A stretch of 64,000 nucleotides of DNA, from NCBI RefSeq assembly GCF_054482525.1, contig NZ_CM137006.1; one strand, given 5' to 3'. A program made the translations under genes and the position numbers. The notes under the pieces were generated by a model. It was not told the origin of the DNA, ran no database searches, and saw only the letters and a program-made list of their open reading frames with translations. This document shows, piece by piece, positions 56,393-57,034 of the stretch. Within the stretch, counting starts at the first letter, position 1, and every line of letters starts with the position of its first letter.

Positions 56393-57034
56393 TTTCTGAG
56401 TATCGCATTCAGGATGGTCAGCAGTTTGCGCATACAGGCTACCAGCACCGCCGTAGTCATTACGCCGATGCCTTTAATGTTGCTCAGGTGCTCAGCTGGT
56501 TCTTTAAAATGGTTCCGGATGTGGGTGTTCATCTTCCAGCGCTTTGATGATATTAATGTTTTTTTTTGCTTTGCGGGTGAGCCGGGTACAACCTGTTTTG
56601 CTCAGTAACTGGCATTGCGATCAACTGGTGTCTGCAAACGACTATGGCATTAAGAACCTGACGTTCTGCATCCGGCAAAGTCCGGATAAAGCGGTCTCGT
56701 TCCGGATGGTAATTAATAACTGCAGCCATCTGGGCAAAAAAACCGCGCATCATGCGGGTCAGTCTTCGCCAGATATCCCATCGCACGGGCAAAGTCACGA
56801 GCTTGCCTGGGGTTAACTACGGCGATCTCAAAACCTTCGGGCTGAAACGCACAGGTTATGGCGGCCTTCCATCAACACAAAGGCCATATCGTGCTGCCTC
56901 AGTTCAGCGATGATGAAATCAACGCCGTCAGCACCACTGGCAACAGAAAACCGTTCAATAGTGTTGCTGGCGGCAATATCCAGCGTTGTTTTGGACACAT
57001 CGGTATCAACACAAAGTGGATTTGGCAGACTCAT
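56393..57034 (-). pseudogene. IS110-family transposase, frameshifted remnant
   Basis: N-terminal ORF 56828-57034 (MSLPNPLCVDTDVSKTTLDIAA...), middle ORF 56553-56798, C-terminal piece 56393-56460 (...LTILNAILR-like) in a different frame. Confidence 0.6.

Follow-up and report, generated by a model that had tools for sequence, protein, structure and literature searches.

The closest described system to the elements reported here is IS621, an IS110-group element with a bridge-RNA-guided recombinase (Durrant et al. 2024, PMC11208160; structures 8wt6-8wt9), in which the loops of the RNA are oriented with respect to the insertion-site flanks in the same way as in the subfamily treated below (PMC11208160). 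Nearer still are the ISKpn42-like elements, a subfamily of 1.16-kb elements of Enterobacterales encoding a 322-aa recombinase homologous to that of IS621. The name ISKpn42 is second-hand, being one source's label on proteins (P0044 and P0116) that are 65% identical to the reconstructed protein of remnant B, described below. IS110-family pseudogenes and the bridge-RNA mechanism are already known, and the 3' end shared by the two remnants analyzed here needs no new explanation.

We examined a 64,000-nucleotide stretch of contig NZ_CM137006.1 (assembly GCF_054482525.1), hereafter the window, which covers the pheV region of an E. coli chromosome. At 1-14.6 kb lies the group-2 capsule (kps) cluster, and partial repeats of the tRNA-Phe 3' end at 17194-17215 and 44319-44342 indicate the bounds of two tandem pheV islands; no intact tRNA was found in the window. 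The two islands have in common a 5-kb module carrying DUF4942, DUF957, and related genes (17354-22358 vs 45295-50271, 90% identity). An Rfam match to IS102 RNA at 25293-25529 on the minus strand (79.4 bits, above the gathering score) points to an IS102/IS903-type element in island I. Two remnants, A and B, belong to the ISKpn42-like subfamily; a profile search with nhmmer detected no other copy of the family in the window. They are very probably independent insertions, long dead, of two different members of one IS110-group subfamily.

Limits and decay of remnants A and B

The preliminary description had taken both copies for IS110-family remnants, which was borne out by matches to the NCBIfam profile NF033542 and by their annotation as pseudogenes in RefSeq, both on the minus strand. 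The limits it gave (16815-17000 for A and 56393-57034 for B) had to be replaced, and the apparent stops that underlie them are secondary. The features are as follows, with the evidence in brackets.

16762-17000, minus strand: remnant A, an ISKpn42-like IS110-family element, 3' terminal 239 bp or so (profile, BLAST, RefSeq, NCBIfam)
16762-16782, minus strand: right end of A, 21 non-coding nt, ending in ...CAAGACAGTTG (right-end alignment with intact elements, junction listing)
16760-16761, minus strand: core dinucleotide at the right junction of A, AT where the family has CT (right-end alignment, junction listing)
16823-16856, minus strand: 34-nt shared stretch, copy A, encoding ...LLTILNAMLRKN... 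of the transposase C-terminus (motif search)
56328-57209, minus strand: remnant B, an IS110-family element of the ISKpn42-like type, both ends retained (nhmmer, left- and right-end alignments, ORFs, RefSeq)
56328-56348, minus strand: right end of B, 21 nt, ending in ...CAAGACAGTTA (right-end alignment, junction listing)
56326-56327, minus strand: core position at the right junction of B, AT and not CT (junction listing)
56390-56423, minus strand: 34-nt shared stretch, copy B (motif search)
56449-56451, minus strand: junction of the deletion of about 237 bp in B (nhmmer, translation)
57035-57209, minus strand: left end of B, 175 nt, beginning with TGTATCC (left-end alignment of four intact elements, then 12 others)
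57039-57084, minus strand: predicted donor-binding stem-loop of the B bridge RNA (left-end alignment, RNAalifold)
57101-57163, minus strand: predicted target-binding stem-loop of the B bridge RNA (RNAalifold consensus, loop extraction)
57210-57211, minus strand: core dinucleotide at the left junction of B, CT (AG on the plus strand) (left-end alignment, junction listing)

A profile built from eight intact elements placed its model positions 927-1165 on window positions 17000-16762 (nhmmer, E 1.2e-68), and intact elements aligned with remnant A by BLAST over 16762-16988. What is left of A comprises the last 66 or so codons and the 21-nt right end, which is the left-donor half-site of the family; about 925 bp on the 5' side, including the bridge-RNA left end, are gone, and the left junction is lost with them. 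RefSeq annotates 16813-16995 as an IS110-family transposase pseudogene "missing N-terminus". The C-terminus of A matched positions 281-342 of the 343 positions of NF033542 (E 3.6e-9), and the N-terminal DEDD (RuvC-like) domain PF01548 is absent. The ancestral TAA stop lies at 16783-16785, and the apparent stop at 16813-16815 is a nonsense mutation.

Remnant A is located between kpsF and pheV, outside the pheV islands. In strain 1428 (L010), where pheV carries no island, A follows kpsF and precedes pheV, some 200 bp away from the tRNA. Approximately 1,550 of 5,426 complete genomes carry 80% or more of the segment 16700-17200; A is absent from K-12, where only 71 bp next to pheV are in common. 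No specific description of an IS110 remnant at the kpsF-pheV junction turned up in a literature search. The 157 bp or so from the truncation point of A to the K-12-homologous pheV flank (16989-17145) may contain the junction of the deletion that removed the remainder of the element. A complete IS4 (1426 bp, 15297-16722, plus strand), with an 11-bp target duplication (CAATCATCAGG), lies 39 bp from the right end of A and is missing from most A-carrying genomes.

Remnant B, found in 197 genomes, lies within island II, with a gene annotated "inovirus Gp2 family" on one side and a YfjI-family gene on the other. It measures 882 bp against 1164-1168 bp in most intact copies and was inactivated by frameshifts and an internal deletion. 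The profile matched it in two blocks, model positions 1-805 on 57209-56449 (E 2.8e-199) and 1043-1164 on 56451-56329, so that positions 806-1042, approximately, are taken out, and with them most of the C-terminal Transposase_20 domain. The open reading frame is broken into three pieces in different frames, and RefSeq lists it as an IS110-family transposase pseudogene, "frameshifted; incomplete". Pfam searches on the individual short ORFs gave almost nothing, PF01548 not being found in the short ORF pieces of B, and a frame-corrected reconstruction was used instead. This protein matched NF033542 (E 5.8e-20), and its match to profile positions 5-172 covers the N-terminal DEDD domain; a less decayed allele of B (P0001) has PF01548. 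Transposase_20 (PF02371), which includes the catalytic serine region and is present in the intact relatives, is reduced in B to its start (E 0.015, below the cut-off) because of the 237-bp deletion. The NF033542 scores of A and B are both below the full-length cut-off, as expected for fragments. At the right end of B the terminal G is changed to A, the ancestral stop is at 56349-56351, and the apparent stop at 56377-56379 is the result of a frameshift. The left end of B lies upstream of the ATG at 57034.

RefSeq/PGAP lists "IS110 family transposase" pseudogenes at the same loci and with the same calls in hundreds of E. coli genomes. In contrast to the limits given here, that annotation covers coding remnants only, with neither left and right ends nor a bridge RNA, and it ends B at window position 56437, thereby missing the C-terminal piece common to A and B. 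For two pseudogenes found again in hundreds to thousands of E. coli genomes, the present analysis puts the annotation in order and fixes the true limits, including the unannotated left end of B with its predicted bridge RNA.

Intact relatives and the predicted bridge RNA

Many intact 322-aa relatives were found in Enterobacterales by tblastn and protein searches, the closest being 64-68% identical to the reconstructed B protein (best 68%). ISKpn42-like examples come from Klebsiella and E. coli plasmids (L003/L022), E. coli plasmids (L007, L008), Salmonella (L014), Serratia (L002), Citrobacter (L018), and Xenorhabdus (L019-L029); L014, L015, and L017 are three independent insertions of one Salmonella element. 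The limits of the relatives could be fixed because an empty site was available: comparison of the filled site L003 with the empty site L006 gave an insert of 1164 bp with CT on either side (...GCCTTC-CT/TGTATCTTG...CAAGACAGTTG/CT-GATATT..., slashes marking the element limits). Thirteen other copies among 16 fetched loci likewise begin with TGTATC, end with CAAGACAGTTG, and are flanked by the CT core, the exceptions being two starts with GGTATC and one start that was not located. The same ends and core were seen in L002, L007, L008, L014, L015, L017, and L031 and in 12 further loci, which had been fetched by means of a 24-nt pattern located in the second loop of the left end. CT stands at the right junction in 13 of 13 relatives, three decayed copies (L022, L025, and L031) among them. 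Of the 16 left junctions that were located, 15 have CT and one has CC; one more junction was not located. B and all intact relatives have one layout, with a long non-coding left end, a short right end, and no terminal inverted repeats.

Remnants A and B resemble these elements in their ends and, for B, in the left-end architecture; they are 70-90% identical to them in nucleotide sequence and align end to end with their profile. They depart from these elements in being pseudogenes and in having AT at the right junction. B is moreover a mosaic, with a left end of the L008 type and a coding region of the L014/L018 type: its left end and the first 60 nt or so of the gene (56973-57209) are 92-95% identical to plasmid elements of the L008 type, whereas beyond this point the gene matches Salmonella L014 at about 81% identity and L008 at only 70-74%.

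Several observations on the distribution of the relatives are added here. The plasmid-borne L002 and L008 adjoin psiB/ssb, within the leading region of plasmids that are conjugative or mobilizable. Elements of the L003 type are found at a single fixed site within an IS3-family element, apparently in many plasmids of Klebsiella; in many more plasmids this site is empty (loci L003, L006, and L022). A third family member on the E. coli chromosome (L031, 538 records) is full-length with an internal stop and lies in an island intergenic region between two zinc-ribbon genes, beside another inovirus-Gp2-family gene.

The transposase of the intact relative L003 matched that of IS621 (PDB 8wt6_A) with an E value of 4.9e-32 over residues 9-319 vs 10-324, in a patchy HMMER alignment as between distant protein relatives. 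The two systems agree in a recombinase that is homologous over its full length, in a long left end and a short right end without terminal inverted repeats, in a CT core on both sides of the element, and in a left-end RNA of two stem-loops with internal loops, of which the first has a 5' side in the sense of the left flank and a 3' side complementary to the core and the right flank. IS621 itself is 1.28 kb long, against 1.16 kb in the present subfamily. Further differences are that the donor ends of the subfamily read ACAGTTG-CT-TGTATC, that its targets are not REP sequences, and that the copies in the window are dead, A being without the RNA and most of the gene and B without an intact gene.

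RNAalifold consensus folds (5 and 13 left ends; 13-17 elements) contained two stem-loops. The first consists of a 12-bp stem, in which one UA/CG pair is compensatory, of two internal-loop strands that are hypervariable, and of a small hairpin at the tip. The second hardly varies among the elements and includes AACAGTTG, which is the right-end sequence. In intact copies, the 5' loop strand repeats the left flank and core in the same sense, and the reverse complement of the 3' loop strand equals the CT core and the right flank. Own loop-flank pairs matched on average at 6.8 and 7.0 of 9 positions, compared with about 5 for mismatched pairs. Examples are given below.

L003: 5' loop TGCCTTCC, left flank TGCCTTC-CT; 3' loop reverse complement CTGATAT, right flank CT-GATAT
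L008: 5' loop TGCCCCTTA, left flank TGCCC-CT-TA; 3' loop reverse complement CTTACAT, right flank CT-TACAT
L002: 5' loop without contiguous match; 3' loop reverse complement CTTGCGG, right flank CT-TGCGG
L029: 3' loop reverse complement CTTACAG, right flank CT-TACAG
L028: 3' loop reverse complement CTTTTGA, right flank CT-TTTGA

By homology with IS621, we infer that the subfamily uses an RNA-guided mechanism. The left end of active members would give rise to a bridge RNA, whose first internal loop would pair with the target on both sides of the CT core and whose second loop would pair with the element's own joined ends (...ACAGTTG-CT-TGTATC...), and the recombinase would insert the circular element at CT. 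The loop-flank matches in the relatives uphold the earlier view that the family inserts site-specifically; the specificity is that of each element's own guide.

Judged from its sequence, the left end of B is predicted to encode a bridge RNA of the IS621 type. Its putative target-binding stem-loop has a 12-bp stem, the 5' loop TGGGGCCCCTTA (57139-57150), a terminal hairpin, and the 3' loop ATATGTAAGCAAAT (57113-57126), and the single-sequence fold had a z score of -2.35. The putative donor-binding stem-loop contains AACAGTTGTCC, in the same sense as the right-end terminus ACAGTTG plus core, and this donor-binding segment is invariant across 17 elements. No bridge-RNA family of Rfam matched on the strand of the B left end. 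On the opposite strand, antisense to it, there was a sub-threshold match to RF02234 (sX15) at 57022-57175 (plus strand, 29.8 bits, E 0.003). sX15 is a plasmid sRNA of Xanthomonas that has a complementary partner, asX7, and is present in 10 copies in S. maltophilia; in appearance, the sX15/asX7 locus resembles the bridge-RNA region of an IS110-family element. No sigma-70-like promoter was predicted in integrated B, which would agree with a promoter that arises only when the two ends are joined, as published for IS621.

The shared 3' end

The match between the 3' ends of A and B is real, and it lies at the 3' end of the transposase gene as first described, but its extent had been overstated as near-identity over about 50 bp. 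The motif quoted there is exact at 16823-16856, occurs at 56390-56423 with two mismatches to its degenerate form, and appeared in none of 100 shuffles of the window. A and B differ at three of these 34 nt (91% identity), and their identity is about 82-84% over 60-126 nt. BLAST of the window against itself aligned 16758-16882 with 56324-56449 at 81.7% identity over 126 bp. The similarity extends beyond the apparent stops and ends exactly at the right end of each element (16762 and 56328). Around the shared stretch the translation is ...VALVDCMRKLLTILNAMLRKNEE(stop) in A and ...VLVACMRKLLTILNAILRKNKEM(stop) in B; the intact proteins run on to ...NEEWDESYHHVAP(stop), where A reads ...NEE(stop)NES(stop)HHVAP(stop) and B is frameshifted. 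The common stretch consists of the segment coding for the C-terminus (...ACMRKLLTILNAMLRKNEEW...) and the right end of 21 nt with the donor half-site. A retained only this end of its element, and in B a deletion of 237 bp took out the sequence just upstream. The block stands isolated in B because the deletion ends directly beside it.

In the eight intact elements, conservation within the coding region is highest in the 3' coding segment, with a mean pairwise identity of 0.85-0.89 vs about 0.77 elsewhere, and across the elements only the donor-binding part of the left end scores above it. Since this is the best-conserved part of the gene throughout the subfamily, any two members are alike at the 3' end; a shared 3' end between IS110-family fragments is expected because these elements are most conserved in the donor half-site and in the segment encoding the C-terminus. 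In the 34-mer itself, elements from Serratia (L002), a Klebsiella/E. coli plasmid (L003), Salmonella (L014), and Xenorhabdus (L024) show 1-3 differences from A or B. For the 122 nt shared by the two remnants, the identities were as follows.

A and L007: 90%
A and L003: 89%
A and L014: 86%
A and B: 82%
B and L014: 85%
B and L002: 84%

Because of these values, A is no closer to B than to elements of other genera, and the nearest relatives differ, L007 and L003 for A and L014 and L002 for B, the differences being based on 122-223 nt only. The resemblance of A and B is thus generic family conservation.

The 34-nt core, at 91%, exceeds its surroundings at about 82%, and mosaicism is found elsewhere in the family, as in B with its L008-like left end and L014-like coding region. 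Such a pattern might be produced by gene conversion or recombination between A and B in this genome, by which the patch was made or is kept similar. We give this explanation next to no credence: the patch is equally conserved, at 1-3 differences, in intact elements of other genera; it coincides with the family-wide conservation peak; A and B still differ in it at three positions; and each allele is fixed in this form in many other genomes, the patch of A having the same sequence in L010.

Targets and junction cores

The preliminary description had further suggested the two copies as possible markers of a target sequence preferred in the islands. The right junctions read ...CAGTTG/AT/TATCGGCGCATATG... 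in A and ...CAGTTA/AT/TACGTGACGTATGC... in B, so that alignment of the flanks does give a common motif, ATTAY, consisting only of the degenerate core and the first three target bases; past it, the similarity is at chance level (p 0.3-0.8, local alignment vs shuffles). A homology suspected by eye between CATATGACTC in the A flank and CATATACTC in the empty site of B was rejected by the same shuffles (p 0.3-0.8). To judge from these flanks, A and B do not appear to have a common island target, and essentially the outcome is that of two different family members in flanks without a shared motif.

An insertion hotspot specific to the islands, that is, one preferred target recurring in islands of the pheV type and occupied by both A and B, is nevertheless conceivable in a family that is site-specific. 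Both right flanks begin with AT-TAY, and B and L031 are both intergenic and near inovirus-Gp2-family genes of such islands. However, CT-TAY is used by L007, L008, L014, L015, L018, L024, and L029, whose targets otherwise differ, and the flanks of A and B resemble each other beyond it no more than by chance. A is outside the islands, and with its left flank lost the full target offers no comparison. The target of L031 (TCCTC-CT-GAGCT, whose CT-GAGCT side fits its own guide, as do its own flanks generally) differs from the empty site of B (CACGCC-CT-TACTG). We therefore regard a shared hotspot as improbable, and there is no sign of one in the 3'-end resemblance, which reflects conservation in the family.

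The guides of the relatives were compared with the flanks of the two remnants. The right flank of A fits the guide of the Salmonella L014 type (CTTACCGGC) at 7 of 9 positions, all other guides fitting at 4-5, and L015, a natural insertion of the Salmonella element, has the same TATCGG as the A flank. The predicted guide of B fits its own flanks at 4/9 and 5/9, no better than mismatched pairs, and fits the empty site of B no better than unrelated guides do; no guide fits the right flank of B above chance. An apparent match of the right flank of B to its own guide (5 of 7) was dropped, the mismatched guide-flank control giving the same background. That the present RNA of B directed the insertion of B is not claimed.

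The empty site of B, found in other strains, reads ...CAACCACGCC-CT-TACTGTGACATATAC... (around the core, ...CACGCC-CT-TACTGTGAC...); the left flank of B is rearranged relative to it. Whereas the core should be identical on both sides, B has CT on the left but AT on the right; in A, the right side likewise reads AT and the left side is lost. The same core bases, AT, occur at the right junction of A in strain 1428 and at that of B in the variant L013. Because the empty site of B has CT, we read the AT core as a post-insertion mutation.

The same C-to-A change of the first core base at the right junction, in no other copy examined, could also have been inherited from one ancestral insertion that was copied with island DNA and then diverged into A and B, and the visual likeness of CATATGACTC to CATATACTC would fit such a history. 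The empty site and the comparison of the flanks already refute this reading in large part, since the locus of B is empty with a CT core in other strains and the flank alignment scores are not significant (p 0.3-0.8). Furthermore, A is nearer to intact elements of other genera than to B, and the contexts, the kpsF-pheV spacer and an intergenic site between island genes, are unrelated. We consider a single insertion highly improbable. Under the preferred reading of two independent insertions, the same AT change in two events is unexpected and may be due to chance (n=2).

Despite its wrecked recombinase gene, B keeps a predicted bridge-RNA gene that is structurally intact. At columns invariant in the family, the left end of B has one private change, and the deviation is 3.6% there vs 9.3% in the coding remnant (Fisher p 0.049). 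Compared with the L013 allele, B is 98.3% identical in the left end, 91.0% in the coding remnant, and 93.5-94.8% in the flanks. Selection on the left end is not claimed; these preservation statistics are marginal and post hoc (p 0.049 vs the coding remnant and about 0.05 vs the flanks), and the effect is not significant in L013.

The AT cores and the mosaic, well-preserved left end of B offer small leads on the decay of RNA-guided IS elements. A and B are two fixed E. coli remnants with the C-to-A change, and in B the adjacent donor base is also changed. Mutation of a junction core may lock IS110 copies against RNA-guided excision, allowing them to survive, with the RNA of B remaining usable in trans; we hold this to be a speculative and rather doubtful idea. 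The recombinase served in this way could be that of plasmid-borne L008-type elements, which are 95% identical.
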